Assembly (NCBI GenBank): GCA_021823625.1
Contig: JAKANS010000001.1
Location: forward strand, 16,483-80,482
DNA length: 64,000 nucleotides
Direction: 5' to 3'
Source: a bacterium
Lineage (GTDB): Bacteria > Verrucomicrobiota > Verrucomicrobiia > Limisphaerales > J093
Below the pieces are notes generated by a model, which was not told where the DNA came from, did not search any database, and worked only from the letters and a program-made list of their open reading frames with translations. This document shows positions 3,901-49,582 of this stretch, one piece after another; position 1 is the first letter of the stretch; the number at the start of each line of letters is the position of its first letter. The translations under genes and the position numbers were made by a program.

Positions 3901-5397
3901 TCGCTCAGCCGCCAAGGGAGCTCGGCGGGCAATTTCTGTGGCCTTCTCCGCTGCCGCCTGTTCTGCGAGCAGGAAAGCCCTCTCCACGGTTTTCGCCTGA
4001 CTCAAACGGGAGACGTAGTCCGAATAGCTCCCGGTTTCCTCGAACGTCGCTTGACCGCGGCTAAGCAATTCCTCCGCGTGAGACAACGCACGCCAAGCAT
4101 GTTGTTGCATGGCGCGGAGGTTCCTTTCGCGACATCTGTTTGCCGCCGCAAGTGCTTCGTTAAACTCGATGCGCAAACCGGTCTCCTGCTTTTCTGTGGC
4201 TAGGTTGGCAAGCGAAACCGCTTGCGCCGCCCGTTGCTCTGCGTCCAAGTAGCCTTCAAATGTCTGCTGGTCACGGAAAGTGGACGCTTGCCCAAGCGCA
4301 GCCAGGCTGGCGTCCCATTCTTTCAGCGCTCTCTCATTTGCGTGCCATTCTCGCATCGTATCCACTGCTGCTGTCGCCTCGGAAATCCGCAACGCCACCT
4401 GCTGGCGTGAATTCTCGAATTGCTGGTGTGTCACGTGCTGTGAACGTTCGGATGCCAGAAGCAGGATGGCCTCGAAGTCTTGCTGATTCTCCTGTGTCAG
4501 GAGTTTGGCGAGTACTGGATTCCGGCTGGTGTGTAGGGCTTTCCGGAGCTCAAGCAACTCGGACTTCAGTAAGCTAGCACCCCCGCCTGGTTCCCCGGGT
4601 GCGAGGACCAGCACTGGCGGCCTCATCTCGACCTTGGGAACCACCCGGCCACTAAGCGAAAGGGTGACCAGTGGTACTCGCGGGCTGGAAGTGCGCACGT
4701 GCACGACATCGCTGTATGTTTCGCTGTGTGTGACTTCCGGCGCATGGAATATAGCGGTGACCAACAGGCCCTGGACCTTCACCTCGAACGGGCCCCGCCA
4801 CGTCTGAGTGGAGGTCAGGGCCAAGTTTCGCAGGGCTCGCGCCTGGAAGATCACCGTTTCCGTGGCCCGCTCGCCCGGGCTGAGCTTCCCGAATTGGACG
4901 TTCCTGGGTTCGTATGAAAAGTCCGGGATCACTTCCGCTCGCAGGCGGCCAACTACGATGTAATTCGTGGTGCTCACCCGCAGGACCGCCTCCACTGCGG
5001 TGGTAATCGGGCCATTCCGGCCAGCGGTGTTGAGGCGGACTGCCACCGGGATTTCGCCCTGCGGGGCGAGGATTTCTCCCAGTATGTTCGTGAATACCAG
5101 CGTGCAGGCGCAATCCGTTCGCAGCGCCACCATCCGCAGCTTCATCTCGCTCCGATTCCGCAGGGGAAAGGTCCGCACGACCGTCTCGTTCTGTAAAACC
5201 TTGCCGGCGTCGAGCTCGTCCGGGTCAAAAGCCACAGGGGGCAGCAGTCGCGCCAGCGGCACGCTATCCGCCGGTGCTCCTGCCGGCTTAGCGGGATGGG
5301 GTCTGGACAGCCGTGGGGCAACGAAAAAGAGGAATCCGATGATGCAGACGCCGAGAAGACAACCCAGTATTCTTGCCGATCTACTCAACTCAGCCAC
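976..5397 (-). CDS. giant membrane-anchored multidomain protein (2x DUF1573-like, coiled coil, TM hairpin, 2x FGE-sulfatase/SUMF1 domains, 3x PEGA, Gly-rich tail)
   Basis: 1473-aa ORF with GTG start and GGGAG about 10 nt upstream. N-terminal TM (ILGCLLGVCIIGFLFFV). FGE-sulfatase signatures LAGNVWEWCEDF...LRGGSWG and LGGNVWQWCED...LGGGSWG. PEGA-like modules lie between them. Hydrophobic pair LSLWGLLCVPL / AVVGTLVGGVWSLLILLQIVAAI. Confidence 0.85.
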   Translation of the reverse strand: MAELSRSARILGCLLGVCIIGFLFFVAPRLSRPHPAKPAGAPADSVPLARLLPPVAFDPDELDAGKVLQNETVVRTFPLRNRSEMKLRMVALRTDCACTLVFTNILGEILAPQGEIPVAVRLNTAGRNGPITTAVEAVLRVSTTNYIVVGRLRAEVIPDFSYEPRNVQFGKLSPGERATETVIFQARALRNLALTSTQTWRGPFEVKVQGLLVTAIFHAPEVTHSETYSDVVHVRTSSPRVPLVTLSLSGRVVPKVEMRPPVLVLAPGEPGGGASLLKSELLELRKALHTSRNPVLAKLLTQENQQDFEAILLLASERSQHVTHQQFENSRQQVALRISEATAAVDTMREWHANERALKEWDASLAALGQASTFRDQQTFEGYLDAEQRAAQAVSLANLATEKQETGLRIEFNEALAAANRCRERNLRAMQQHAWRALSHAEELLSRGQATFEETGSYSDYVSRLSQAKTVERAFLLAEQAAAEKATEIARRAPLAAERAPRWGNASLRLSLWGLLCVPLSPVGLTYGIRSLSEYGFCQSQVGMWKAVVGTLVGGVWSLLILLQIVAAINRETTERQGAQSAAGEANRVPVPSAVVAAPKSLAPGAWWTNSLGMVFTPVPGTKALFSIGETRVQDYAAYAGANGGVDGSWRSPRYQNVLVTAGSDCPVVNMSWEDAKAFCRWLTAKERGEGKLAPNQEYRLPTDLEWGVAVGLQNESGNTTPRHDSKVQGVYPWGAQWPPPRGAGNFADESARRKFSGSTVIAGYDDGYATASPVGSFAANQYGLYDLAGNVWEWCEDFYGGKSGTHVLRGGSWGNSNPDTLLSSCRAYGTSDGRQDRVGFRMVLGEASASGSEETAANAVASLKVSTQPPGATVRLDNAEPQKSPATFEDVSSGNHRIEVSMDGYEPLTREVRIRGSDVVDLGVLRLVRSVGIAKIVSTPEGVAFEIENREFGKRFGRTPQTLEDLPTGTYQVSVKRDRWPEQTKRITIDQGGRAMADFQFPSGSLKVSSQPAGAVVIVAGKGMGVTPLALADLPPGEIICDLKLKGYKAARLRGSIIANREAPLRIALEKVGPSAGTSWTNGLGSKFVPVPGTAVGFCVWDTRVKDFEAFATATSRQTPSGMECIGPRGWARRENSWRSPGFVQTPDDPVVGVSWDDAKEFCQWLTAKERNEEVIALDQAYRLPTSSEWRQACGGSLYPWGNQWPPPPGAGNYAGKEFDHPKYGIAGYRDGFHRTAPVGSFSPNQFGIYDLGGNVWQWCEDRPTAGELARINSPPKASGLGGLLKGVLTLPVQVLDTSASENTGGSGPQSQGGQPAKPSYFLGGGSWGPNPREQLQTAYRAARSSDVRSDAYGFRLVLDLQPGRGSDAATGSITAKGSSYSGGSSYQGTTYQGGTVHGGGSVQGGSSQGGWGHGGGSSQGGTVQGGSVRGGTYKGGTYQGRSSAPGSSSPGSRPPTAPDGGAGRTNRPPGK
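1063..1260 (-). repeat. in-frame tandem pentapeptide repeat G-G-x-x-[QHRK], about 11 units, in the C-terminal tail of the giant protein
   Basis: Translation SSYSGGSSYQGTTYQGGTVHGGGSVQGGSSQGGWGHGGGSSQGGTVQGGSVRGGTYKGGTYQG. The DNA shows a recurring ccaccttgg/gcttcc periodicity. Confidence 0.8.
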
Positions 5398-10686: not shown

Positions 10687-10967
10687 ACCAGCTCGCCGAG
10701 CACAAGCGTCGCCTCATCGAGGAGTGCGACCGCGAGCGGAGCGCCATTCGTTCGCACGCCCACATGGTCGCCACGAAGCTCAGTTGGATCGAGCAGGTTC
10801 GTGAAATCTACCATCTCGCGCGGCCGGCGGTCTGGGTGGGCGCCTCGCTGGTGGGCTTGCGGGTGGCGTCGCGGCTGTCGCGGGCAGCCCGGTTGCTGGG
10901 CAGCGCGTTCTGGCTGGTGCGCCACGGATCCAGACTGCTCCGCCGGCGACGGGCTCGGGCGCATTGA
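10665..10967 (+). CDS. YqjK-like small membrane protein
   Basis: 100 aa from ATG 10665. Overlaps the previous gene by 22 nt. Charged N-terminus plus a TM segment. Confidence 0.55.
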   Translation: MVGQTEINQLAEHKRRLIEECDRERSAIRSHAHMVATKLSWIEQVREIYHLARPAVWVGASLVGLRVASRLSRAARLLGSAFWLVRHGSRLLRRRRARAH

Positions 10968-11094
10968 CCTGGCTATCCGTTGTTATCGCCCGCCGCTCGC
11001 GTCGCCGTGAGGTCGCCGCCGGCGATGCGCCGATTCGGCGCTCGCGAATCTCCTTGCTGGTCTGGACGCGGCGGTTAGCCTGCAACCCGCTTTT

Positions 11095-11186
11095 GCCAGG
11101 GCCCGCGGAATGTGGACTTACGAACCCCGCCAGGGCCGGAAGGCAGCAACGGTAGTTTGCTCTGCATCTGCCGCGGTCACCCTGGC
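11095..11186 (+). ncRNA. ffs: signal recognition particle RNA (small bacterial 4.5S type)
   Basis: Domain IV signature AGG-GCC-GGAA-GGC-AGCA at 11132-11148. Terminal helix GCCAGGG (11095-11101) pairs with CCCTGGC (11180-11186), and CCGCGG/CCGCGG forms an inner helix. Sits immediately upstream of dnaX (conserved synteny). Ends are approximate, +/-15 nt. Confidence 0.75.
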
Positions 11187-11273
11187 TTGATTTCAACTCC
11201 AAAGGCGGAACGTGGAAGGCGGAATCTCCTGTGCGGGGCGTTCTGCCTTCTCCACTCTGCCGGTCGCCTTGCC

Positions 11274-13073
11274 GTGAGTTACCAGGTCATAGCTCGCAAG
11301 TACCGCCCGCAGCGGTTCGCCGATGTCGTCGGCCAGGACCACGTCACCCAGACGCTGGCCAACGCCATCGCCCGCGGGCGCATCGCCCATGCCTACCTCT
11401 TTTGCGGCCCGCGCGGCACGGGCAAAACCACCGTCGCCCGCATCTTCGCCAAGTGCCTCAATTGCACCGGCGGGCCGAAGGTGGATTTCGACGACGCCGA
11501 CCCGAAATGCGCCGAGATCGCCGAGGGCCGGTCGATGGACGTGCTGGAAATCGACGGCGCCAGCAACAACGGCGTCGAGCAGGTGCGCGAACTGCGCGAG
11601 ACCTGCCGTTACGCGCCCGCCAGTTCCAAGTTCAAGATCTACATCATCGACGAGGTGCACATGCTCTCGGCGGCGGCGTTCAACGCGCTGTTGAAGACGC
11701 TCGAAGAACCGCCGGCGCACGTGAAGTTCATGTTCGCCACCACGGACCCGGAGAAGGTCCTGCCCACGATCCTGTCGCGCTGCCAGCGGTTCGACCTCCG
11801 CCGCATCCCGGCGGCGCTGATCGTGAAGCACCTCGCCGCCATCGCAGCCCAGGAGGAGGTGAAGGTGGACGAAGCGGCGTTGTACGCGATCGCCCGCGGC
11901 GCTGACGGCGGGATGCGCGACGCCGAGTCCACGCTGGACCAGCTCATCAGCTTTTGCGGCAACGAAATCGCCGAGGCGGATGTGCTCTCGATGTTTGGCC
12001 TGGCCGCGCGCGGACAACTGCTCGGTCTGGTGGACGCCGTCATCGACGGCGACGCCGAAAAGGTCCTGCGCGAACTCGACGAACTGGGCCGTAATGGCAA
12101 GGACCTCGGCCGCCTTCTGTCCGACTTGCTCAACCATTTTCGCAACCTGCTGATCTTCCAAGTCACCAAAGGCCAGGCGGCGATGCTGGAGGTGAGCGAA
12201 GCGGAGGCGGAAGCCTTGCGGGCTCAGGCCGGACGCTGTGCCGTCGATGCCGTGACGCGCGTGATGGAGGTGCTGACCGAAACCGAAGGCCGGCTCCGCG
12301 ACGCCGTTTCCAAGAAGATCTCGCTCGAGGTCGCGCTGCTGAAAGCCATCCAGGTGCGCAGCGCGGTCAGTCTCGACTCCGTGCTGGGCCAGCTCAAAGC
12401 CTTGCGCGGCGAGGCCGGCAGCACGCCGCCGGTCGCGACAGCGTCCGCAGCACCGGCCATCGCCGCGGCACCGACACCAGTCCGCAGCGCCGCACCGGCT
12501 CCTGTCTTGCGCGAAGCTCCCGTGCCGGCCGCCGCCGCGCCGGTGGCGACCGCACCCGCGACGCCGGCGGCGGGCGATCTCGCGGCCCACTGGAACGCCG
12601 TTCTCGATGGCGTGGCGCGGACGAGTCCTTTCCTGCGCAATTACCTGCTCAAAGGCTTTGCCGTGTCGCTCGACCGGGAACTGCTCACCGTTGGCTTCCC
12701 CCCGGCCAGCGCGCATTTCCTGCCGCTCATCGACAACACCAAGAACCACAAACTGATCGCGGAAGTGCTCAAGGCGGTGGGCTTGAAAGACCCGCGGGTG
12801 AAGTTCACCCAGCGCGACGCCCCGCCGCCCGAAACACCGGCAACAACCGTCGCTTCAACTCCCGCGCCTGCGCCCGCCCCGGCTGAAGCGCCGCCACCGC
12901 CTGCCGCGCCCGTGCCCTCCGCCACCGAGGCTGCGCCGGCCAAACCGGCCAAATCCGCGATGACGCGCCTCGATCCCAACGCGTTCAAGGACGATCCGCT
13001 CATCAAGGAGGCGGTGGAAATTTTCAAAGGCCGCATTGCCCAGGTGGTTGCCCCGGCGTCCCAATCCTCCTAA
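11274..13073 (+). CDS. dnaX: DNA polymerase III subunit gamma/tau
   Basis: GTG 11274 gives (M)SYQVIARKYRPQRFADVVGQ. Walker A GPRGTGKTT. Ala/Pro-rich linker. Confidence 0.9.
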   Translation: MSYQVIARKYRPQRFADVVGQDHVTQTLANAIARGRIAHAYLFCGPRGTGKTTVARIFAKCLNCTGGPKVDFDDADPKCAEIAEGRSMDVLEIDGASNNGVEQVRELRETCRYAPASSKFKIYIIDEVHMLSAAAFNALLKTLEEPPAHVKFMFATTDPEKVLPTILSRCQRFDLRRIPAALIVKHLAAIAAQEEVKVDEAALYAIARGADGGMRDAESTLDQLISFCGNEIAEADVLSMFGLAARGQLLGLVDAVIDGDAEKVLRELDELGRNGKDLGRLLSDLLNHFRNLLIFQVTKGQAAMLEVSEAEAEALRAQAGRCAVDAVTRVMEVLTETEGRLRDAVSKKISLEVALLKAIQVRSAVSLDSVLGQLKALRGEAGSTPPVATASAAPAIAAAPTPVRSAAPAPVLREAPVPAAAAPVATAPATPAAGDLAAHWNAVLDGVARTSPFLRNYLLKGFAVSLDRELLTVGFPPASAHFLPLIDNTKNHKLIAEVLKAVGLKDPRVKFTQRDAPPPETPATTVASTPAPAPAPAEAPPPPAAPVPSATEAAPAKPAKSAMTRLDPNAFKDDPLIKEAVEIFKGRIAQVVAPASQSS

Positions 13074-37983: not shown

Positions 37984-39324
37984 ATGAAGGTTCCGTTCAA
38001 AACCGTTTCCGGATCGATCGTCGCCCCGCAAGGCTTCCTCGCGAGCGGCGTGTTTTGCGACATTAAACGCCTCGGCACCGGCAAAGGCTCGGACAAAGGC
38101 CGGAAGCGCGACCTGGCGTTGATCGTTTCCACGATGCCCGCCACGGTCGCCGGCCTGTTCACGACCAATCAGGTCTGCGCCGCGCCGGTCAAGGTGTGTC
38201 TCGAACGCGTGAAAACCGGCGTCGCGCAGGCCATCGTGGTAAACTCCGGCAACGCCAATGCCTGCACCGGCCGCCAGGGTTACCGCGACGCGCTGGCCAT
38301 GACGGAGCTGGCGGCCGCGCCATTTCATCTCCCGTCCGAACAAGTCCTGGTGGCCTCGACCGGCCGCATCGGCGTGCCGTTGCCGATGGCCAACGTGCGG
38401 GCCGGCATCGCGGCGGCGGCCCAGTTGCTGGGCGACGACGCGGCGCACGCCGCGGAAGCCACCGAGGCCATCATGACCAGCGACACGCGGCCGAAGCAGA
38501 TCGCCGTCGAGTTCAAGCTAGGCGGCCAGACCGTCCGCCTGGGCGGCATCTGCAAAGGCGCGGGCATGATCCAACCCGGCATGAGCGCCACCGGCGCGCG
38601 GCCCTCCGCCACGCCGTTGCACGCCACGATGCTGGCCTTTTTGACGACCGACGCCTCCGTTGCGGCCGGGACGCTCCAGGCCTGTTTGCAGGAAGCGGTC
38701 GCGCAGAGCTTCAACCGCATCACCGTGGACGGCGACATGAGCACCAACGACACCGTGCTCATTCTGGCCAACGGCGCCGCGGACAACCCCCAACTTCGCC
38801 ACCCGAACGCGCAGACTCGAAAGACCGAACTGAGCACCTTCCAGGCCGCGCTGAACCACGTCTGCCTGGAACTGGCCAAGAAGATCGTGCGCGACGGTGA
38901 AGGCGTGACCCGCTTCGTCACCGTGCGCGTCAGCGGCGCGCGGACCTTCGCGGAGGCCGACGCTGCGGCGCGCGCCGTGGCCAACAGCGCGCTGGTCAAA
39001 ACCAGTTGGTGCGGCGGCGATCCCAACTGGGGCCGCATCATCGATGCACTGGGGTACTCGGCGGCGACCGTTGTCGAAGAGCAGGTGGACATTGGCTACA
39101 GCGCGCCTGGCGGGCGCGCGGTCCTGTGGAGTCTGCGCCGTGGCCAGCCCACCCGGGCGACCTTCAAATTGCTTTGCGCCGCGGTCGCCGCCAAGGAGTT
39201 CGACCTGCACATCCGGCTCAACTTGGGCAAGGCGGGCGCGGTGATGTATGCCGCCGACCTGACCGAGGCCTACGTCGATTTCAACAAAGGCGACGTGAAC
39301 GACCCGGCCTCGCTGGGCGGCTGA
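37984..39324 (+). CDS. argJ: bifunctional glutamate N-acetyltransferase / amino-acid acetyltransferase
   Basis: 446 aa from ATG 37984. Autoprocessing context LHATMLAFLTTDA. Confidence 0.9.
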   Translation: MKVPFKTVSGSIVAPQGFLASGVFCDIKRLGTGKGSDKGRKRDLALIVSTMPATVAGLFTTNQVCAAPVKVCLERVKTGVAQAIVVNSGNANACTGRQGYRDALAMTELAAAPFHLPSEQVLVASTGRIGVPLPMANVRAGIAAAAQLLGDDAAHAAEATEAIMTSDTRPKQIAVEFKLGGQTVRLGGICKGAGMIQPGMSATGARPSATPLHATMLAFLTTDASVAAGTLQACLQEAVAQSFNRITVDGDMSTNDTVLILANGAADNPQLRHPNAQTRKTELSTFQAALNHVCLELAKKIVRDGEGVTRFVTVRVSGARTFAEADAAARAVANSALVKTSWCGGDPNWGRIIDALGYSAATVVEEQVDIGYSAPGGRAVLWSLRRGQPTRATFKLLCAAVAAKEFDLHIRLNLGKAGAVMYAADLTEAYVDFNKGDVNDPASLGG

Positions 39325-39459
39325 GCGCCGGGCCTGCACGTCTCTCGCGGGTGAGGTCCAGCCCCGGGCCTGAAGCGCGGATTTCCCGCCGACAACCTGG
39401 CACCGCTCGCTGCTTTCCAGCGCCGGCTGGTGAATTACCTCAAGCCCGTCCCGGTCGAG

Positions 39460-39535
39460 ACGATCCTGGAACAAGTCCGGTTGGCGGTCCGCGAATGCTC
39501 GAAGGCGGAGTTCATTCCCGAGCGATTTCGGGAAC
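39460..39535 (+). repeat. 76-nt direct repeat, left copy (islet boundary)
   Basis: 73/76 identical to 43373..43448. Lies at the 3' end of a start-less ORF remnant (39352-39546). Confidence 0.85.
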
Positions 39536-39799
39536 TCCGCGGCTGAGGCACCCGGCTCAGCCTGAAGGCCGCCGGTGGAGGCAGATGAGCACGGCAGGAG
39601 AAGCCCGCTGAGCACGACTGCTAGAACGGGAAAACACCGCCATTGCTGGCGCTCTGTGATTGTGAATAGCACTTTACCCACGTGCTCCTGGTGGCGTCTT
39701 GGGTTTTTTGGAGTAGGCTGCAACCCTTTATTTTGCGCCGGCCTTGACAAAACGTGTGGATTGACGCGGGAACGCGTACGGAAGTACAAAATACGCAAG

Positions 39800-41077
39800 A
39801 TGCCTCAGGTTAAGTTTGGGAAAGCGATGGGGGCGAGGGTAACGCTTGGCATGGAAGCCTTGCTGCTCGCTTGCGTTATCCTCCGAACCCTCCTGGGTGC
39901 GATGGCTCAGGGCGCCGAGAGCCGTGGCCCCGTCCCGATTTATGCCTACAGTCCCGATGGGTGGCTGATCGAGTTGTGCTTTGACAAGGCGATCGAGCGG
40001 ACCAGTGCGACGAACGTGGCGAACTATGCGCTTTCCGATCCTCGCTATGAAACCACCTCCGCGATTCTGCGAGAAGACGGTCAATCGGTGATCCTGCGCC
40101 TGGCGCGCCAGTATCCTTTCGGTGTGGCGAAGCTTGAAGGGACAAACATTGTCGGTCTCGACGGGCAATCCACTCCTTGGGTATATACCCTCCACTTCGG
40201 TGACTATGGTGCGACGGATGTCGGCAACCCGGGCACTGATCCCAAGGAACCCGGCAGCTATTTCAATTGTAGGGGTGATGAATTCCAAATCGTCAGCAGC
40301 GGCGCGGGATGGGAGGCGGCCAGCGACGGCTTCTTCTTCGTACACACGCCCGTCGGTCCAGCAGTGCAAGGGATTTACGTCTGGCAGATCTCGTCGCTGG
40401 AAGCGGCAAACAAGGATTCGAGCGTTGGCGTGATGCTCCGCGAGGACCTGAGTGCGATCAGCCGCTTTGTGTGTGTTTCGATCACCGCAACGGACGAAGC
40501 TGCGCGCGATGGTTCCGGCCCCGGAAGCGCTCTGGTGAAAGTGCTCTGGCGCGACCAACCGGGCGCGTTACCGACAGAGACGTCGGGTACTCGCTCCATC
40601 CAGGGACTCGTTTTGACGAATCTTTGGTTTAGTATCTTCCGATACGACCGGACAATAGAGGTGGGTTGGCGCACTCGACCGGGGGACAGCGCGGAGACGC
40701 TCGCAAATGTCACATTCTCCATGCCTGTTACGGAGAAGTGGCAGATTGGCTTGGCCGCGGCGTCACACAACAATGCACCAGGTTTCTCGGGCCGGTCTGT
40801 GTCTTCATTCTACGAGTTACACGGCGACCCATTCACGCTCCCGAGACTGAGAGCCAAGCTGGGGGAAGGCGAGTTGACGCTCAGCTGGACCGTTGACTCT
40901 ATCGAGGACGAGTACCTATTGATGTCGAAACCGACCCATGGCCCCGATACCTACTGGGATGTGGTCACGAACCCGGTTGTGACCACCGCCGGCCCCACTG
41001 GTGTGACCAATTTGGTCCGCGTGCCGGTCGAACCGGCCGCCAAGTTTTTTGCGTTGGGAGTCGGCCGGGGTTTTTAG
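39800..41077 (+). CDS. secreted hypothetical protein (SbsA-type Ig-like N-domain plus jelly-roll / LamG- or DUF1349-like domain)
   Basis: 425 aa from ATG 39800, with internal alternative starts possible. Hydrophobic leader MEALLLACVILRTLLGAMA. IELCFDKAIERTSATNVANYAL. Confidence 0.6.
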   Translation: MPQVKFGKAMGARVTLGMEALLLACVILRTLLGAMAQGAESRGPVPIYAYSPDGWLIELCFDKAIERTSATNVANYALSDPRYETTSAILREDGQSVILRLARQYPFGVAKLEGTNIVGLDGQSTPWVYTLHFGDYGATDVGNPGTDPKEPGSYFNCRGDEFQIVSSGAGWEAASDGFFFVHTPVGPAVQGIYVWQISSLEAANKDSSVGVMLREDLSAISRFVCVSITATDEAARDGSGPGSALVKVLWRDQPGALPTETSGTRSIQGLVLTNLWFSIFRYDRTIEVGWRTRPGDSAETLANVTFSMPVTEKWQIGLAAASHNNAPGFSGRSVSSFYELHGDPFTLPRLRAKLGEGELTLSWTVDSIEDEYLLMSKPTHGPDTYWDVVTNPVVTTAGPTGVTNLVRVPVEPAAKFFALGVGRGF

Positions 41078-41217
41078 TTCTAGGAAAACCGATGCCCGAC
41101 TGGATTAGCCCATTGGGCTGGTGCAGAAGACACTGTGGTGCATACATCCGTAATGTGGGGTCCTAATGAGTGTCATAGCATTGAAACGGGCATCTTTGCG
41201 GTTTGGAAAGTAACAAA

Positions 41218-43314
41218 ATGTCAATCCTTATGAAAACTGTAACACAGACTCCTTGGAGAACAACAATAGCAATCTCTGCGGCTCTCACTCTGATCGGCGA
41301 ATACATATCGCTTGGACAAGCCTTGCTAGGTGTGCCACAAGCTCCGCCCAGCTTGCCAGATGCTACCAGATCAATCTCCAAACCAGGAAATGCTTTTCTT
41401 GAGATCGACCCGATTGACCGGTTGGTGGCTCCATCTTCGCCGTTGTCAAAGAAGGAAAGACTAGATCGAATCAATTCACTCTGGTTTAGCGGGTCCACAC
41501 GGAGGCTTAATATGAATCTCTTCGACGATGCGAAACTCAGCGTCGTCATTGACCGATATGAAACCATGCGCGACGTCAGAGTATTTTACGGGCACGTTGA
41601 AGGCGACGACGAACTTATGGTCTTGATTGCTCATCGGGATGATACTATTGCTGCGCGCATTCGCGGCCCCGACGGGCGAATTTTCTATGTCGGCTACGTC
41701 GGCGACGGAATTCATAGGATCTGCGAGCTTGACCCGCTCAAGCTGCGAGACGTGGTGCAGGATGATGTTTTGTCCGAGAGTAAAGAACTTCAACCGGTTG
41801 TCGAGGCGACTCGTCCGGGAGCAATAGCCAGCCGGACCATTACCACACCGCCTGTGATCGACGTTATGATCCTGTACACAACAGAAGAAAAGGACATGCT
41901 AGGCGGTCAAGCAGCCACTGAAGCGAGAATCGCCCTGAGCGTCGCCTACGCGAACGAAGCCTTCCGTCGCAGCTTCGTTGACGCCAGACTGCAATTGGTC
42001 CACATAGAAGAGGTCACCTCAGAATGGCATCAGCCCACTCATACTGCGCTGGGCGAGCTAAGTTGGGTAGCATTCGATCCAGTCGTAGCGCAGAGACAGG
42101 CTAGCTACGGTGCCGACTTGGTGAGCCTACTGAGCTATTTTACAGACTGGGGCGGGATGGCCTATTGTTCGGATTATTGGTCTGTCTATTGTCATTACCC
42201 AGAGCACTTTACGCATGAAGTTGGCCACAGCTTTGGCTGTAACCACGAGCGCGATTGTTCGTTTCCCCCGTACTGCGGAAGTCAAGACTATAATTACGGT
42301 TACCATTTTACCTCTCCGGTGGATGGGGTGCATTACGGAACGATTATGTCCTATCAAGGATTTTATTCCGACCTTTTCTCCAATCCCACGAACTATTTTC
42401 GCGGAGCTGCGACCGGCATTCCAGAAGGCCTGACAGATGCCGCGGATAACGCTCGCCAGTTAAATTCCGCTGCGGCAGGGGTCGCCTCTCGGAGGAGCCC
42501 TGCAGTTACCGTATTGTCGTCACCCGCTTTGATCAACAACGGAACCCAGTTCTCGTTTCAGATCGTTGGGCCTAATTCCGGAGTGTATCGCGTCGAGTAC
42601 ACCAGCGACTATGCTTCATGGTCCACACTTGGGGACTACACTCTCAGCTCTGGAAACGTGGCGATGGCAGACAGCATTGGGAATAGCCCCTATCGGTTCT
42701 ACCGGGCGAGGCTGGGCAGCGCGTATTTGGGTACACAGATTGGGTATATCAAGATGACCGTTCCGGCGGGTTTCAGCATGATTGGCAACCAACTCGATAA
42801 CGGGGACAACACTTTCGACGCGCTTTTCCCGCTGGGATCCGTGCCGGAAGGGACAACCGCCTACAAATACGATGAGCAAGCAAATCCACCCGGGTACGTG
42901 ATCAAGTCCTATGTTTCTGGCGAGTGGACCTATCCCTGGATGACGCTTCGACCAGGGGAGGGTGTGCTCTTTCAACCCCCGACCGCGGTCAACCTGGCAT
43001 TCGTCGGTGAAGTGTTGCCCGCGTTTAACCGTAGAGTGCGTACGGGATTCAGCATTCAAAGCTCGGCTGTACCTCAGGCTGGCTTGGTTACGTCAGTCCT
43101 GCGTTTTCCAGGTGTCGCCCCAGATGGAGAGAGCATCTCCGCGGGAGATGTTGCGTACAGGATGATCAATACTGCCGGCGATTACCAGATGTTCACCTGG
43201 AGCGGTACAGCGTGGACGCCATCCGAACCAGTGATGGGCATCGGTGAGGCCTTTTGGTCGAACAAGCAGAACCAGACAGGTTATTGGAAACGGGTGTTTT
43301 GGACTTGGCCGTAA
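41218..43314 (+). CDS. secreted zinc metalloprotease (metzincin / reprolysin-like) with a long beta-rich C-terminal region
   Basis: 698 aa from ATG 41218. HEVGHSFGCNHE zinc motif with downstream GTIMSY (Met-turn candidate). N-terminal hydrophobic segment. Confidence 0.75.
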   Translation: MSILMKTVTQTPWRTTIAISAALTLIGEYISLGQALLGVPQAPPSLPDATRSISKPGNAFLEIDPIDRLVAPSSPLSKKERLDRINSLWFSGSTRRLNMNLFDDAKLSVVIDRYETMRDVRVFYGHVEGDDELMVLIAHRDDTIAARIRGPDGRIFYVGYVGDGIHRICELDPLKLRDVVQDDVLSESKELQPVVEATRPGAIASRTITTPPVIDVMILYTTEEKDMLGGQAATEARIALSVAYANEAFRRSFVDARLQLVHIEEVTSEWHQPTHTALGELSWVAFDPVVAQRQASYGADLVSLLSYFTDWGGMAYCSDYWSVYCHYPEHFTHEVGHSFGCNHERDCSFPPYCGSQDYNYGYHFTSPVDGVHYGTIMSYQGFYSDLFSNPTNYFRGAATGIPEGLTDAADNARQLNSAAAGVASRRSPAVTVLSSPALINNGTQFSFQIVGPNSGVYRVEYTSDYASWSTLGDYTLSSGNVAMADSIGNSPYRFYRARLGSAYLGTQIGYIKMTVPAGFSMIGNQLDNGDNTFDALFPLGSVPEGTTAYKYDEQANPPGYVIKSYVSGEWTYPWMTLRPGEGVLFQPPTAVNLAFVGEVLPAFNRRVRTGFSIQSSAVPQAGLVTSVLRFPGVAPDGESISAGDVAYRMINTAGDYQMFTWSGTAWTPSEPVMGIGEAFWSNKQNQTGYWKRVFWTWP

Positions 43315-43372
43315 CCGATGTCAGAAGGTTCACCTGCAGTCAGGACAACGCGCGCGTGTCCCTCGGATCAAA

Positions 43373-43448
43373 ACGATCCTCGAACAAGTCCGGTTGGCGG
43401 TCCGCGAATGCTCGAAGGCGGAGTTCATTCCCGAGCAATTTCAGGAAC
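43373..43448 (+). repeat. 76-nt direct repeat, right copy (islet boundary)
   Basis: 73/76 identical to 39460..39535. Confidence 0.85.
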
Positions 43449-43471
43449 CACGCGCCCGAACCGCGTGGTTC
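43445..43471. terminator. 10-bp GC-rich hairpin abutting the aldolase stop codon
   Basis: GAACCACGCG-cccgaac-CGCGTGGTTC. No U-tract on either strand. Confidence 0.35.
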
Positions 43472-44222
43472 AAATGCTGAGCTGCCCTTGCCGGTAGGCC
43501 TCGTCCGGGCGGGTGGTGATGCGCTCGACGTGTTGCGGCAACAGGAAGGTCGGCCCACCCATGGCCGCCGCGCCGGCGAAAATGCGCGCCGCCTTGTCCG
43601 CCATCAACAGGCAGGAAAGGACCGATCTCGGCGAGCCGCCCAGCGCGATGACCCCGTGGTTTTGGAGGAGGATCAACTTGGGCACGTTCCCGTGATCGCG
43701 GATGAAATCCTTGGTGCGCTCGCGAATCTGCCAGGCCAGCGCCAGCCCAGGGTCGGCGTAAGGCACATAGACCGACGCGGCGCCGCAGAAGACGATTTCG
43801 TCCGGGAACATTCGCAGCTCGGCGAAGTCGCGGGCGCGCGGCGAACACAGGATTTGGTTCACGCTGGTCGGATGGCAGTGGCCGATGAAACGGACGCCCT
43901 CCAGGGTGAGCAACCAGGCATGGAACATCGCTTCAATGCTGGGCTTCTTCGCGTTCGGATCCAATCGCGCCTCAAGCAACGCCTTTTCGACCACCGCATC
44001 GGGCAGGCTCTTCTTGTCCAGCAACGTGACCAGCCGGCCGGTGTCGCAGACCGTGACCTCGGCTTCGGTGAGCGAGGCCAGCCGCGTGCCGCTGGCCTTC
44101 ACGGCAAGCTGGGTGGGGCTGAGCCGGACCGAGGTGTTGCCTTCACCGAGGAGGGCGAGGTCGCGGTCTTCGCGGCCCATTTCGTGGGAAAGCTCCAGCA
44201 ACGCGGCGATGTCGTCGTGCAT
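43470..44222 (-). CDS. class II aldolase/adducin-family protein
   Basis: 250 aa from ATG 44222. Motifs FIGHCHPT and LLQNHGVIALG. Confidence 0.85.
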   Translation of the reverse strand: MHDDIAALLELSHEMGREDRDLALLGEGNTSVRLSPTQLAVKASGTRLASLTEAEVTVCDTGRLVTLLDKKSLPDAVVEKALLEARLDPNAKKPSIEAMFHAWLLTLEGVRFIGHCHPTSVNQILCSPRARDFAELRMFPDEIVFCGAASVYVPYADPGLALAWQIRERTKDFIRDHGNVPKLILLQNHGVIALGGSPRSVLSCLLMADKAARIFAGAAAMGGPTFLLPQHVERITTRPDEAYRQGQLSI

Positions 44223-44343: not shown

Positions 44344-46209
44344 GTGAACGCGCAATCGACTCCGGTTTCCCGCAAAGGCGGTCCCGCCCGCCGCTGGCTC
44401 AAAGTGGTCGCCGCCTCGATCGGCGCGGGAGGGCTCGTTCTGGCCGCGCTGGTGGTAAATGTCGTGTGGTTCAAGCCGTTCAGCTTCCGGCTTTTTTGCG
44501 AGCGGGTGTTCATCCGGGTGGCGCTCCAGTCGCCGGAAATGATGACCCAGCTCGGCCTCGCCGATTCGTTGGGGATCGATTACTTCAATTCGCGGCTCAC
44601 GGATCGTTCGGAGGCCCACGTCCGGCACCTGCTCGCGCAAGGCCACGAGGACCTGGACACCTTGCGGCGGTACGACCGCGCGAAGCTGACCGCGAGCGAG
44701 CGGCTTTCCGCCGACATTCTCGGGTGGTTCCTCGAAACCGCGGTCAACGGCGGCGACCGGTTCTTCTACCACCCTTACGCCATCGAGCAAATGGACGGCA
44801 TCCAGGTGGCGCTGCCCAACTTCATGGTGAACGTGCATCCGCTGCGCACCCGGCGGAATTGCGAAGATTACGTGGCCCGGCTCGCCGCGTTCGGCCGCGC
44901 GTTCGACGACACGATCGCGTTCGGCCGCGCGCAGACCGGGCGGGGCATCGTACCGCCGCGGTTTGTGATCGCGAAGGCGCTGGATCAGCTCCGCGATTTC
45001 ACCGCCCGGGAGCCGAAGCAGTGCGCGCTCTACACCGTCTTCGCCGAGAAGACCGCCGGTGTGAAAGACCTTGAAACGGCGGACCGCGAGGCGTTGCTGG
45101 CCCAGGCGCTCACGCAGGTCGAACAGACGGTTTATCCCGCCTTTCGCCGGCTGACCGCGCACATGGAAACGATCGAGGCCAGGGCCACGGACGACGCCGG
45201 CGTCTGGAAACTCCCGAACGGCGAAGCCTATTACGCGTTCTGCCTGCGCGAACACACCACGACCGATCTCACGCCGGCACAGGTCCACCAAATGGGCCTG
45301 GCGGAAGTCGAGCGCATCACGCACGAAATGCGCGGAGGCCTCGAGAAGCAAGGATTGCACGGCAAGTCGGTGGCGGAACTCATGCACGACCTCGCGAAGG
45401 ACCGCCGCTTCCTCTACGCGAACGACGCCGCCGGGCGGAAGGAGGCGATCGCGCACTTGCAGCAAATGTTGGACGAAGCCAACGCCGGCATGTCCAACTA
45501 TTTTCGCCACCGGCCGAAGGCGGGAATGCTGGTGAAGCGCTTCGAGCCGTTTCGCGAACAAGCCGCGGCGATGGGCGAGTACATGGAGGGCTCCTTGGAC
45601 GGCAAACGGCCGGGCATCTTCTTCGCGAACCTCCGCAACATGGACGAGTTCCCGCGGTTCTTCATGCGGACGCTGGCCTACCACGAAGGCATCCCGGGGC
45701 ATCACTTCCAGATTTCACTCGCCGCCGAGTTGAAGGGCGTGCCGACGTTCCGGCGGGTCATCCCGTTCAGCGCCTACGTGGAAGGCTGGGCCTTGTACGC
45801 CGAGCGGCTGATGTGGGAGGTCGGGTTTCACCAGGATCCCTTCGACAACCTCGGCCGGCTCCAGGACGAACTGTTCCGCGCGGCGCGGCTGGTGGTGGAC
45901 ACCGGCATCCACTACAAACGGTGGCCCCGCCAGCAGGCCATCGATTACCTCCAGCAGACCACCGGCATGGCCGAGACGGATGTCGCGAACGAGATCGACC
46001 GCTACATCGTCTGGCCCGGCCAGGCGTGCGCATACAAAACCGGCATGCTCAAGATTCTGGAACTGCGGGAAAAGGCGAAGAACGCGCTGGGCGCAAAGTT
46101 TTCGCTCAAAGATTTCCACGACGTCGTGCTGCTCAACGGCGCGATGCCACTGGGTGTCTTGCAGCAAGAAGTCGAGCGCTACGTCGCGCGGGTCAGCGCC
46201 GCGCCGTAA
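44344..46209 (+). CDS. DUF885-family protein
   Basis: 621 aa with GTG start. YHEGIPGHHFQ and YVEGWALYAE motifs. Confidence 0.85.
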   Translation: MNAQSTPVSRKGGPARRWLKVVAASIGAGGLVLAALVVNVVWFKPFSFRLFCERVFIRVALQSPEMMTQLGLADSLGIDYFNSRLTDRSEAHVRHLLAQGHEDLDTLRRYDRAKLTASERLSADILGWFLETAVNGGDRFFYHPYAIEQMDGIQVALPNFMVNVHPLRTRRNCEDYVARLAAFGRAFDDTIAFGRAQTGRGIVPPRFVIAKALDQLRDFTAREPKQCALYTVFAEKTAGVKDLETADREALLAQALTQVEQTVYPAFRRLTAHMETIEARATDDAGVWKLPNGEAYYAFCLREHTTTDLTPAQVHQMGLAEVERITHEMRGGLEKQGLHGKSVAELMHDLAKDRRFLYANDAAGRKEAIAHLQQMLDEANAGMSNYFRHRPKAGMLVKRFEPFREQAAAMGEYMEGSLDGKRPGIFFANLRNMDEFPRFFMRTLAYHEGIPGHHFQISLAAELKGVPTFRRVIPFSAYVEGWALYAERLMWEVGFHQDPFDNLGRLQDELFRAARLVVDTGIHYKRWPRQQAIDYLQQTTGMAETDVANEIDRYIVWPGQACAYKTGMLKILELREKAKNALGAKFSLKDFHDVVLLNGAMPLGVLQQEVERYVARVSAAP

Positions 46210-46242
46210 AGTTGGCCGGCCCGCCACCAAGGCGGCGGAGCC

Positions 46243-47565
46243 TCAGGGCGCGCGCCGGGGCCAGGCGAGTTCGACCGGACAGATCAGCACCTTGTCGATG
46301 CGCTGGCGGTCCATGTCGATGACCTCGAAACGGAACCCCTGCCAGTCAAAGGTGTCGCCTTCTTTCGCCGCGCGGCCGAGTTGTCCGGCTACGAACTCGG
46401 CCACGGTCGCGTGCTCCGTTTGCGCCCCGGCCGGCAGAGGCACGCCACCGAGCAGCGGTTCGAGTTTGGCCAGGAGAAACCGTCCGTCCACGAGCAGCGA
46501 GCCGTCAGGGCGCCGCCGGGCTTCCGGCCGGAGCCGGTCCTCAAGGGACGGGATCTCGCCGACGATCGCTTCCAGCACGTCCACGAGCGTGACCAGACCG
46601 ACTACCGCGCCGTTCTCGCCGACCACCAAAGCGATGTGCTGACCAGTCTGCTTGAACCGATCGAGCAAGTTCATCACGGTCTGCGTGGCCGGCACCGTGA
46701 GCGGCCGCGTCATCAGGTCCGCCAGCCGCACGCCCACCTGGGCGGCCAGATTGGCGTAAATCGCCTTCACCGAAACGACTCCCACCACCCGGTCCCGCGC
46801 GCCGTCATAGACGGGGAAATTCGAATGGCCCGACACGACGATCTTGTGCCAGACGGCCTCATGCGGGTCGGTTCGGTTCAGGAAAATGATCTTTTCGCGC
46901 GGGGTCATGATGTCTTGGACGGGACGCTGGTCGAACGCCAAAACCGAAGCGACCATCTGCGGCTCTGCGGCGTGGAACACGCCGGCTTCCATGCCTTCCC
47001 GGAGCAACAGTTTCACTTCGTCGTCGGACACGGTCGGCGCGGGCTTGAGCTTCACGCCAAGCAGCTTCAGGGCGAGATCGGTGGACGCGCCCAACAACTT
47101 CACGGCGGGCCGGGCCAGGTGGCTGAGCCAGTCCATCGGCCGGGCCATCCGCCGGGCGATGCCTTCGGGATTCGCCAGCGCCAGGCGCTTGGGGACCAAC
47201 TCGCCGATGACCAGGGAGAAATAGGTCAACGCCACCACCACGACGCCGACGCCCGCCGCTTCCGCGTAAGGCGCCAGGGGCGCAAACGCGGCCAGCGCCA
47301 GCGCGATTTGGCGCGCCACCGTGGCGCCGCCGAACGCGCCGGCCAGCAGACCGATCAAGGTGATTCCGACCTGGACCGTCGGCAGGAAGCGGTTGGGCGC
47401 TTCGGCCAAATCCAGCGCCACCCGCGCGCGGCGATCACCGGCCTCGGCGAGTTGCTTCAAGCGCGCGCGGCGCGCGGAGATCACGGCCAGCTCGGTCATC
47501 GCGAACACGCCGTTCGCGACGAACAGGAGGAGGATGACGACACTTTCGAGGAGGAGCGAAGTCAT
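46243..47565 (-). CDS. CNNM/hemolysin-family protein (DUF21-CBS pair-CorC_HlyC)
   Basis: 440 aa. N-terminal 4-TM DUF21, CBS region, and C-terminal transporter-associated domain. Confidence 0.85.
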   Translation of the reverse strand: MTSLLLESVVILLLFVANGVFAMTELAVISARRARLKQLAEAGDRRARVALDLAEAPNRFLPTVQVGITLIGLLAGAFGGATVARQIALALAAFAPLAPYAEAAGVGVVVVALTYFSLVIGELVPKRLALANPEGIARRMARPMDWLSHLARPAVKLLGASTDLALKLLGVKLKPAPTVSDDEVKLLLREGMEAGVFHAAEPQMVASVLAFDQRPVQDIMTPREKIIFLNRTDPHEAVWHKIVVSGHSNFPVYDGARDRVVGVVSVKAIYANLAAQVGVRLADLMTRPLTVPATQTVMNLLDRFKQTGQHIALVVGENGAVVGLVTLVDVLEAIVGEIPSLEDRLRPEARRRPDGSLLVDGRFLLAKLEPLLGGVPLPAGAQTEHATVAEFVAGQLGRAAKEGDTFDWQGFRFEVIDMDRQRIDKVLICPVELAWPRRAP

Positions 47566-47632
47566 GGTTCAACCACGGTTTGCGAGCGTTTTGCTCTCGT
47601 CCGGCGGGTGTGCCGGGGTCGAGAGCCACAGA

Positions 47633-48575
47633 CTACTTTGGCCACAGCCACGCCAGGTAACCGGCATAGACTGCCAGCAGCAAGCCGCCTTCCCAGCGCG
47701 CCAGCCGGTGACCGGTCCACACGATCGGCAGCAGCAAGGCGGACGACCCCACCATCACCCAGACATCCACGCGGCTGATTCCGGCGCCGTCCAGCGGCGC
47801 CACCAGACCCGAAGCGCCGAGGATCGCCAGCACGTTGTAGCTGTTCGAGCCAACGATGTTTCCAACGGCAATGTCCGTTTGCTTGCGCCGCCGCGACCAC
47901 GGATGCCGCAAGCTCAGGCAAGCTCGTGCCAGCGGCCACGATGGTCAACCCGATCACGGCTTCGCTCAGGCCGAGTTGCCGGGCGAGATCGACCGCGCCG
48001 TGCACAAACCAGCGCGAACCCAACACGAGCACGATCAATCCGCCGACGATTAACGCGGCGTCCTTCCACCAGGCGGCGCTGGGCGCGGGCAGACTTTCCA
48101 CGGGCGGCAACTCGCCGGTCTGCCTGGCCCCCCGCCGGGCCAGCACCACGTTCAAGGTGATGTAAGCCGCCAACCCCGCGAGCAACAGCGCCGCCTCCCA
48201 GCGGTCCAGCCTCCCGTCGCGGAAGAACAGGAGGAACACGGCGGCCACGCCGATCATCACCGGCGTGTCGAACTTCACCAACTGGGACTGCACGCGCAGC
48301 GGCGTGATCAGCGCGGTCAGACCAAGAATGAAGCCGAGGTTAAAGATGGTTGAACCCACTACGTTGCCGATGGCGATGGCGCCCTGACCGCTGGCGGCGG
48401 CGGTGAGGCTGACGACCAATTCGGGCGAACTGGTGCCGTACGCGACCACCGTCAAGCCGGCCAGGAGCGGGGTCATGCCGAGCCGCAACGCCAGCGCGGC
48501 GCTGCCACGGACGAGCCATTCCGCGCCGAAGTACAGCGCGACCGTGCCTGCGAGCAGCCAGAAGGCGATGAGCAT
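47633..48575 (-). pseudogene. Ca2+/Na+ antiporter (YrbG-like) interrupted by a 1-nt frameshift
   Basis: The N-terminal part (MLIAFWLLAG...GTSLPELAASVVAA) is in the frame of ORF 47562..49556. The C-terminal part (RKQTDIAVGNIVGSNSYNVLAILG...) is in the frame of ORF 47633..47911. The switch falls in the gcgccgccgcg run at about 47885-47897. Confidence 0.75.
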
Positions 48576-48733
48576 GGTATCGGCAAATCCTTCGCGCCCT
48601 TGCCCGCCGCAGCCGCCGTCGGATGCCAGCGCCAGCCCGGCGCGGAAACGCGCGGAGCGTAGCCCGCCGCAGCCGCGGCGCAAAACGGCTTTCCTTTCTT
48701 TGGCCGTTCGCACACGGGCCGCGGAAGCGCCGG

Positions 48734-49582
48734 TCAGTCGTCCCAGCGAAATTCCACGACCAGCGGCAGGTGGTCGGAAGCTTCCGTGCGCGGCACCCAC
48801 GCCCGCAGCGGCTTGAGCGGCGAGCCTTTCCCCAACCAGAGATAGTCGATGCGCCGGTCCGGCTTCGGGCTGGGAATGGTGAAACCATCGCCGCTCCCGG
48901 CGAGCTTCCAGGCGTCGTCGAAAAGTGCCGCCATCGCCAGGTCCGTGCGGCTGCCGGGTGTGTCGTTGAAGTCGCCGCCGAACAGGACCGGCAGGTCCGG
49001 ATAGCTCGCCAGCACTTCCTTGAACTGCGTCACGTTTTGCAGCCGCTCGGCGTCGTCGCGGCGAAAATCGATGTGCGTGGCCAGGAACAACAACTCCCGA
49101 CCGTGGAGGTCGAGGACGAGCTGGAGCACGCCGCGCTGCTCGTTCGGGCGCAGCATTCGCAGGTGGGTGTTGGTCCAGCGTTTCACCGGAAATCGCGTGA
49201 GCACCGCGTTTCCGTACTCGCCGCCCTGATAGTGAAAGTTGTTGCTGAACACGCATGCCAGGCCGGTCAAGGCCGCCAGTTCGGCCGGAAAATCGCGCCG
49301 GGCGGTGCGTTGCACGCCTTTGTCCACTTCTTCGAGCGCGACGACGTCGGCCTGCTGCTGGCGGATGACACCGGCGATGCGCCCCAGGTCCACGCGCCCA
49401 TCCACGCCTTCGCCGTGGTGGATGTTGTAGGTCATGGCGCGAAAGGTCACCGGCTGGGCGGCGGGAGTGTCCGCGGCCCCAGCGTTCACCGCGAAAAGCG
49501 TCACCAGTACCCCAACGACTCCCGTGGCTCGCCGGATTTGCCCGAGCCACCGGCAAGCGACCTGCCGTTTCGGTAGCCGCAA
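48734..49582 (-). CDS. endonuclease/exonuclease/phosphatase (EEP) family protein
   Basis: MTYNIHHG, GGDFND and SDHLPLV motifs. Start uncertain (TTG 49582 gives a signal peptide; ATG 49696 is the alternative). Confidence 0.7.
   Translation of the reverse strand: MRLPKRQVACRWLGQIRRATGVVGVLVTLFAVNAGAADTPAAQPVTFRAMTYNIHHGEGVDGRVDLGRIAGVIRQQQADVVALEEVDKGVQRTARRDFPAELAALTGLACVFSNNFHYQGGEYGNAVLTRFPVKRWTNTHLRMLRPNEQRGVLQLVLDLHGRELLFLATHIDFRRDDAERLQNVTQFKEVLASYPDLPVLFGGDFNDTPGSRTDLAMAALFDDAWKLAGSGDGFTIPSPKPDRRIDYLWLGKGSPLKPLRAWVPRTEASDHLPLVVEFRWDD

Follow-up and report, generated by a model that had tools for sequence, protein, structure and literature searches.

How did a 3.8-kb operon of low G+C content (GC) come to lie between two long direct repeats in the chromosome of a soil Verrucomicrobiota species, and do these repeats mark a mobile element? 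The operon lies between argJ and a class II aldolase gene in the 64,000-nucleotide stretch of DNA analyzed here (hereafter the window; contig JAKANS010000001.1). An initial annotation had proposed that the repeats are either an att-like target duplication left by a site-specific insertion or the boundaries of an undescribed type of element. We find that both repeat copies are 3' ends of an AAA+ ATPase gene and not anonymous att sequence. The locus is an ordinary insertion and rearrangement scar that holds a small acquired islet, rather than a demonstrated new mobile element.

A repeat search of the window placed the direct repeat at 39455-39559 and 43368-43472 (105 nt, 86% identical), with a core at 39460-39535 and 43373-43448 in which 73 of 76 positions match and three do not. 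An exact 55-mer (39469-39523) occurs twice in the window, where shuffled sequences predict no repeat occurrence. The interval between the two copies is the GC minimum of the 64-kb window, at 0.48-0.60 over about 39600-43400 against about 0.66 (0.63-0.71 in the flanks). The 73/76 direct repeat that had been read from the sequence is thus upheld by the repeat search, the mismatch count and the shuffle test, as is the foreign composition of the interval by the GC scan that had been proposed for it. The two-gene operon was acquired horizontally. Within the repeat core, two 7-bp arms of an inverted repeat enclose 6 nt (TTCCCGA GCGATT TCGGGAA, read off the sequence), and of the three positions at which the cores differ, two lie in this 6-nt spacer and the right arm. 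Hairpins, which were said to follow each repeat, do exist at both; only the right one folds better than shuffled sequences (z = -3.3, compared to -1.0 on the left), and it is probably a terminator shared by the second gene of the insert, which encodes a metzincin, and the aldolase gene. The repeat was also considered as an RNA or tRNA target, and this was rejected because Rfam and tRNA scans gave no match at either copy; their sole hit in the window was a signal recognition particle (SRP) RNA at 11094-11190.

The translation of both repeat copies is TILEQVRLAVRECSKAEFIPE. In a back-translated scan of species-representative genomes, the peptide matched the C-terminal end of an AAA+ ATPase of 556 aa encoded in Verrucomicrobiota metagenome-assembled genomes. 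Fragments of this AAA gene occur only twice in the window, as 58 codons (39370-39543) located directly 3' of the argJ stop codon and as 27 codons (43367-43447) that abut the aldolase stop codon. The start-less reading frame that had been reported at the left repeat is therefore a real remnant, namely the 3' end of the AAA gene. The 76-nt core is the conserved coding end of that gene.

The state of the locus before the insertion is preserved in related lineages (L labels denote compared loci and contigs, P labels proteins; 41 loci were scanned for the core). In L016-L020, whose aldolase is 94% identical to that of the window, an intact 557-aa AAA gene converges on the aldolase gene across a 10-nt spacer, with pspA upstream and no insert, and some of these contigs derive from the same European Nucleotide Archive (ENA) samples as the window's species. 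The same insert-free arrangement of pspA and AAA converging on the aldolase gene is found in two further lineages, L040 and L041; the gene contexts compared around the aldolase gene were those of L016-L020, L021-L024, L040 and L041. Relatives at 85% identity retain pspA and AAA near the aldolase gene and DUF885, again without the insert, and L021 carries a glyoxalase gene between AAA and aldolase that is not flanked by AAA-end repeats. The ancestral state is pspA and a 557-aa AAA gene converging on aldolase with a 10-nt spacer. The empty site, for which a single 76-nt copy between argJ and the aldolase gene had been expected, is instead an intact AAA gene (L016, L040, L041 and L021) that meets the aldolase gene, and argJ is not its neighbor. 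No other occupied site was found among the compared loci.

Alignments with L016 and L040 define both copies. The right copy (43368-43472, forward strand) is colinear with the 3' end of the aldolase gene (43470-44222, reverse strand; Pfam Aldolase_II) exactly as in these two loci, and since the insert-free sisters have an intact AAA gene converging on the same aldolase gene, it represents what is left of the AAA 3' end in its original place. Two R-to-Q changes have accumulated in it, its stop codon is gone, and a perfect hairpin of 10 bp (43445-43471), overlapping the stop codon of the aldolase gene, is new. The left copy (39455-39559, forward strand) comprises AAA codons ~531-557, the stop codon and the spacer, and keeps the reading frame and its stop (ERFRELRG*). 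It extends past the AAA stop and ends where the aldolase stop codon would lie (39557-39559), and the duplicated unit is therefore the last 27 codons, the stop codon and the spacer. A TTG codon common to both copies is absent from L016, L040, L001 and L021, which would fit a duplication that arose within this lineage. In a 38-nt stretch of the core, the DNA is nearly the same as in L002 and L004, which are distant, whereas L001 and L021, although closer, do not share this near-identity. Separately, the last 71 nt of the aldolase gene (43470-43540) match L016 exactly while the whole gene differs by ~9%, and local recombination or extra constraint at the convergent gene ends may account for this. 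Between the aldolase and Exo_endo_phos genes, the window (44344-49100) carries DUF885, CNNM and Na_Ca_ex, of which L040 and L041 have Na_Ca_ex only and L016 none of the three; in L021, the neighbor of the aldolase gene is DUF885. The pattern looks as if the sister lineages had lost genes by successive deletions.

Upstream of the left copy the AAA remnant changes character (divergences were counted by hand from alignments). The preserved part (39415-39546, forward strand) consists of the last ~43 codons and the stop, contains the left core, and has, in all but its final residue, the amino acid sequence of the intact AAA proteins P0398-P0400. Over 39415-39535 it differs from L040 and L016 at about 5% of nucleotides, all synonymously, and so resembles DNA subject to purifying selection. 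Between this segment and argJ lies a strongly diverged zone (39333-39414, forward strand) that begins directly after the argJ stop and is either further AAA remnant or junction filler. Homology to the L001 AAA gene begins at 39370 by tblastn, and the sequence of the zone, GFPADNLAPLAAF, corresponds to AAA codons ~500-515. Here, 16 of 39 nucleotides (41%) and 8 of 14 amino acids in 39373-39414 differ from L016 and L040, which are identical to each other in this segment; the neutral distance for comparison is about 0.25. A GTG at 39427 was rejected as a new start codon, as the intact proteins P0398-P0400 also read LV there, and the second AAA gene in the relatives' cluster was rejected as a source of the remnant.

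The argJ side of the locus is a second junction. The argJ gene itself is an intact left flank (37984-39324, forward strand; Pfam ArgJ, 1.4e-129). Its closest homologue, P0008 on L013 (90% amino acid identity), shares with the window the whole gene order upstream of argJ, but is followed by a 53-aa open reading frame (ORF) and a DEAD helicase gene, unlike the window. Alignment of the two sequences shows that the similarity stops about 8 nt past the argJ stop codon. Relatives of argJ at 80% identity have no synteny and are hence uninformative. Taken with the sister lineages, L013 indicates that the window joins an argJ block to an AAA-end/aldolase block, and the body of the AAA gene and pspA are missing at this locus. 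The argJ junction and the insert junction lie within about 230 nt of each other, which suggests one complex rearrangement.

As had been described, the insert carries two co-oriented genes. The first, ORF1 (39827-41077, forward strand), encodes 416 amino acids with a signal-like, hydrophobic N-terminal helix, and is predicted to be secreted or anchored. ORF1 itself has no Pfam match. It has 170 remote homologues, and DUF1349 was matched in 8 of 23 members of its family and Big_5 in 4 of 23. An AlphaFold2 model (predicted local distance difference test, pLDDT, 85.7) comprises an Ig-like domain, a concanavalin A (ConA)-like jelly roll of the DUF1349 type and a C-terminal beta-sandwich; a single-sequence model was discarded (pLDDT 36). 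Foldseek matched the jelly roll to 3o12, 3mep and legume lectins, with a target-normalised TM-score of 0.70 and E = 2e-6 for 3o12. The family matches and the confident model lend support to the earlier Ig-like and jelly-roll reading of this protein.

The second gene (41203-43314, forward strand) encodes a reprolysin/CpaA-like zinc metalloprotease. Its end is at 43314 and its probable start within 41203-41230; the gene caller placed the start at 41512. It possesses the zinc motif HEVGHSFGCNHE of the HExxHxxGxxH type and exceeds the cut-offs of Reprolysin_3 (39.2 against 22.4), Reprolysin_4 (33.4 against 22) and Reprolysin_5 (31.2 against 27), and it belongs to the M12B-like (reprolysin/adamalysin) metzincins; the initial annotation had already called it a metzincin. 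The match to the Mep72 equivalog (NCBIfam NF052434) is partial and, at 86.4 bits, falls far short of the cut-off of 645. Profile searches matched CpaA (6o38, 2.9e-7), its best solved relative, as well as ADAMs. No Pfam match was found in the C-terminal region of ~300 aa. The metzincin is rare, with six homologues found.

The two genes form a conserved unit. The pair recurs in the unrelated context of L010, at 56% amino acid identity for ORF1 and 62% for the metzincin, next to a gene of the major facilitator superfamily (MFS). There too, the GC of the pair is below that of its neighbor; no repeats flank it and no AAA gene adjoins it. The neighbor of a metzincin gene in L039 was rejected as an ORF1 relative because it is not ORF1-like. 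The alignment with L010 also reveals a non-coding motif from about 39663 in the insert leader (39560-39826, forward strand). This motif, GTGAA..ACCC.C.TGCTCC.GGTGG, is found at 39663-39700 of the window and 2134-2170 of L010, ~130-160 nt upstream of ORF1 and its homologue, and might serve the operon as a promoter or leader element. Just upstream of its pair, L010 carries a palindrome (1919-1996) with 39-nt arms, no spacer and 82% complementarity. A further GC-rich palindromic motif, CCCTCxCCCCGACCCTCTCCC...GGAGAGGGAGAA, is intergenic in L010 (5865-5900) and L021 (~11780-11825), which are unrelated contigs, and looks like a dispersed repeat of the repetitive extragenic palindrome (REP) type. 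In L021, a 7-nt tandem array (GGGACTT) at 10780-11116 forms a long inverted repeat.

Misassembly could mimic such a structure, if a contig were a chimera formed across a short repeat. The MEGAHIT contig L027 does end beside the right copy, and the Logan contig L009 (about 39495-43411) has both ends inside the repeat, with the core matching only its extremes. Against this, the full structure of argJ, remnant, insert and aldolase is found again in assemblies made independently from one Logan run and from several ENA samples, and seven contigs (L005, L006, L007, L008, L025, L026 and L028) read across both junctions. An assembly artefact is thus scarcely credible, and the structure is fixed in the species, as every contig of it carries the same arrangement. 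In sample ERZ27237554, L027 (ending at 43439) and the MEGAHIT contig L008 (ending at 43579) overlap by exactly k = 141 beside the right repeat. This overlap implies a branch in the assembly graph, which may stem from a strain variant or an alternative junction.

The islet has no visible means of movement. No integrase or transposase is encoded by the genes called in the ~10 kb to each side or by ten large ORFs scanned in 1-33552 of the window, among them genes for DnaX, an AcrB-type pump and a rhamnosidase. The statement that no such gene lies in or beside the insert accordingly stands. The initial annotation also looked to further copies of the 76-mer as a check on its proposal, and no other copy of the core was found in the window, the 41 loci, IMG/VR or the JGI metagenomes. 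The scan of the latter gave 10 matches, only one of which (L032) is a real AAA homologue, and none contained two copies. The insert has no similarity to plasmids or phages. Among contigs with an identical aldolase gene there is neither an excised form nor an empty site within the species. With respect to recognized classes, the regions scanned show no integrase such as would accompany an integrative element, be it a genomic island (GI), an integrative and mobilizable element (IME) or a cis-mobilizable element (CIME), and no related core-bearing element was found in the loci, IMG/VR or the JGI data. The att-type direct repeats derived from a target site are present, in the form of the 105-nt duplication of the AAA 3' end. 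Transposons and insertion sequences (IS) generate short target duplications of 2-15 bp, and here the duplication is 105 bp, with no transposase and no reported terminal inverted repeats.

The upstream part of the window yielded two further observations. The SRP RNA (11094-11190, 74.9 bits) is followed by dnaX (11112-13073), an ordinary chromosomal arrangement. On the reverse strand, DUF1573, PEGA and FGE-sulfatase domains are combined in one protein of 1473 aa, encoded at 976-5397 in a stretch with a mildly low GC of about 0.60.

The history that we tentatively prefer, with a probability of roughly 0.45, is the insertion of foreign DNA at the 3' terminus of AAA, accompanied by truncation of the gene and by duplication of a 105-bp target, through a route that was slightly more likely independent of a recombinase than dependent on one. 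This history begins with a Verrucomicrobiota chromosome in which pspA and the 557-aa AAA gene ran convergently toward the gene for the class II aldolase. The 3.8-kb operon, encoding a lectin-like surface or secreted protein and a metzincin, would have entered the extreme 3' end of the AAA gene and duplicated 105 bp of it (the last 27 codons, the stop and the spacer), which would be the two repeats of today. The AAA body and pspA would have been lost from the locus in the same complex event or later, leaving about 60 terminal AAA codons joined to the end of argJ. One-sided homologous joining combined with illegitimate joining may have been the route, or a template switch that also created the argJ junction. 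At present, the locus would simply express two predicted exported proteins. The data establish what the repeats are, the ancestral arrangement, the foreign composition, the conservation of the cargo pair and the fixation of the structure in the species; the mechanism is the part of this history that we infer, and a recombinase-independent route is only slightly favored over site-specific integration, which is possible. Several observations weigh against our reading. A 105-bp target duplication is unusual for an illegitimate insertion, the left copy keeps its frame and stop in the manner of target-restoring elements, and neither a donor genome nor a free form of the insert is known. The left remnant is also a mosaic, with a zone of 5% divergence beside one of 41%; this would be predicted neither if one duplication had decayed neutrally nor if a plain deletion had come later. 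This mosaic is explained by neither a resident-duplication nor an att-type model.

A decayed genomic island or CIME-like element is an origin that we regard as rather unlikely, if nonetheless a serious competitor. A tyrosine or serine recombinase would have integrated the element into an attB at the AAA 3' end, so that the gene end supplied by the element became attL and the old end attR; the integrase would later have been lost, or acted in trans, and a separate deletion would have taken the AAA body. Direct repeats at the 3' end of a conserved gene, the intact left and decayed right copies, and the foreign composition of the insert all fit this history, as does a core that is better conserved than its surroundings, holds the 7-6-7 inverted repeat with two of the three copy differences in its spacer and right arm, and contains the 38-nt stretch common to distant but not closer relatives. 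Moreover, att-flanked elements without an integrase are a recognized class (PMC5704250). However, no recombinase gene was seen in the regions scanned, the two cargo genes occupy nearly all of the 3.8 kb, our searches turned up neither a locus carrying the core twice nor a copy in viruses or plasmids, the homologous pair of L010 has neither repeats nor an AAA neighbor, no excised form was seen among contigs with an identical aldolase gene, and the lineage-specific TTG in both copies fits a resident duplication better than a foreign attP. The att-like reading of the initial annotation thus survives insofar as the copies bound a foreign insert and duplicate a target at a gene 3' end, but no recombinase and no further copy accompany them. 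Its other suggestion, an undescribed element type, has nothing positive in its favor, since neither a recombinase nor a further core copy was found and the L010 pair lies without such flanks. A related version, in which a recombinase acting in trans recognizes the conserved last ~80 nt of the AAA gene, with the 7-6-7 site in the core, and moves the operon as a cargo cassette, appears quite improbable. If true, cycles of integration and excision would explain both the conservation of the gene-end DNA across distant Verrucomicrobiota and the resistance of both copies to decay.

The diverged zone next to argJ instead raises the question of whether the two copies stem from the ends of separate AAA genes. 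In that event, a relative would have supplied a linear fragment with an AAA 3' end and the two genes downstream of it, which replaced the region from just after argJ to about codon 530 and left the resident end in place. In favor of this, 39373-39414 has diverged far beyond neutral decay, and the NLAPL of this zone, which is in common with L001 and not with the sister lineages, suggests another AAA source. The DNA of the gene end is conserved enough across distant lineages to resemble a repeat, and displacement that leaves orphaned 3' ends is documented (PMC5361080). Nevertheless, the 121 nt from 39415 are only about 5% removed from the sister lineages and both copies share the species-specific TTG, for which reasons this segment looks resident and not foreign. 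A donor with the pair behind an AAA gene is also needed, and the two other metzincin contexts show none. We therefore consider this exchange improbable, and insertion with duplication of the resident AAA 3' end remains our preferred history.

Under this preferred history, the locus offers a clean, datable case of an uncultured soil Verrucomicrobiota species that gained a pair of genes for an exported protease and a lectin-like protein. As insert-free sisters are present in the same samples, a link between this gain and niche differences could be drawn. The locus also cautions against taking every pair of long direct repeats that flank a low-GC islet for att sites of a new element; here they are relics of a truncated neighboring gene. 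Practical consequences are small unless site-specific mobility is demonstrated.

Several known systems resemble parts of this locus. Secreted metzincins with a partner include CpaA of Acinetobacter with its chaperone CpaB (PDB 6o38) and Mep72 of Pseudomonas with BamI. Like these, the insert combines a reprolysin-like catalytic domain and extra beta-rich domains with an adjacent, co-oriented gene for an exported or anchored partner. Unlike CpaB and BamI, to which no similarity was detected, ORF1 is a 416-aa protein of predicted Ig and ConA-like fold; conserved adjacency in two genomes is what suggests that ORF1 and the metzincin are partners.

Islands at gene 3' ends with attL and attR repeats, including CIMEs that lack an integrase, have been reviewed (PMC5704250). 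The present locus shares with these a foreign cargo set between direct repeats copied from the 3' end of a conserved gene, an upstream copy that keeps frame and stop, and an insert free of recombination genes. It differs in that our searches found no cognate integrase or related element, the target gene is truncated, the repeat is at no other insertion, the L010 cargo is free of repeats, and no excision product was observed. At rhs and type VI secretion system (T6SS) effector loci, C-terminal displacement through homology-facilitated illegitimate recombination is documented (PMC5361080, citing Jackson 2009 and de Vries & Wackernagel 2002). The AAA ATPase differs from those effectors in not being a polymorphic toxin, has no orphan array and no immunity-type gene, and has lost its anchoring 5' part here. 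The outcome is alike in the two cases, with a new module brought in, the old 3' end pushed downstream as an orphan, and gene ends repeated without a recombinase.

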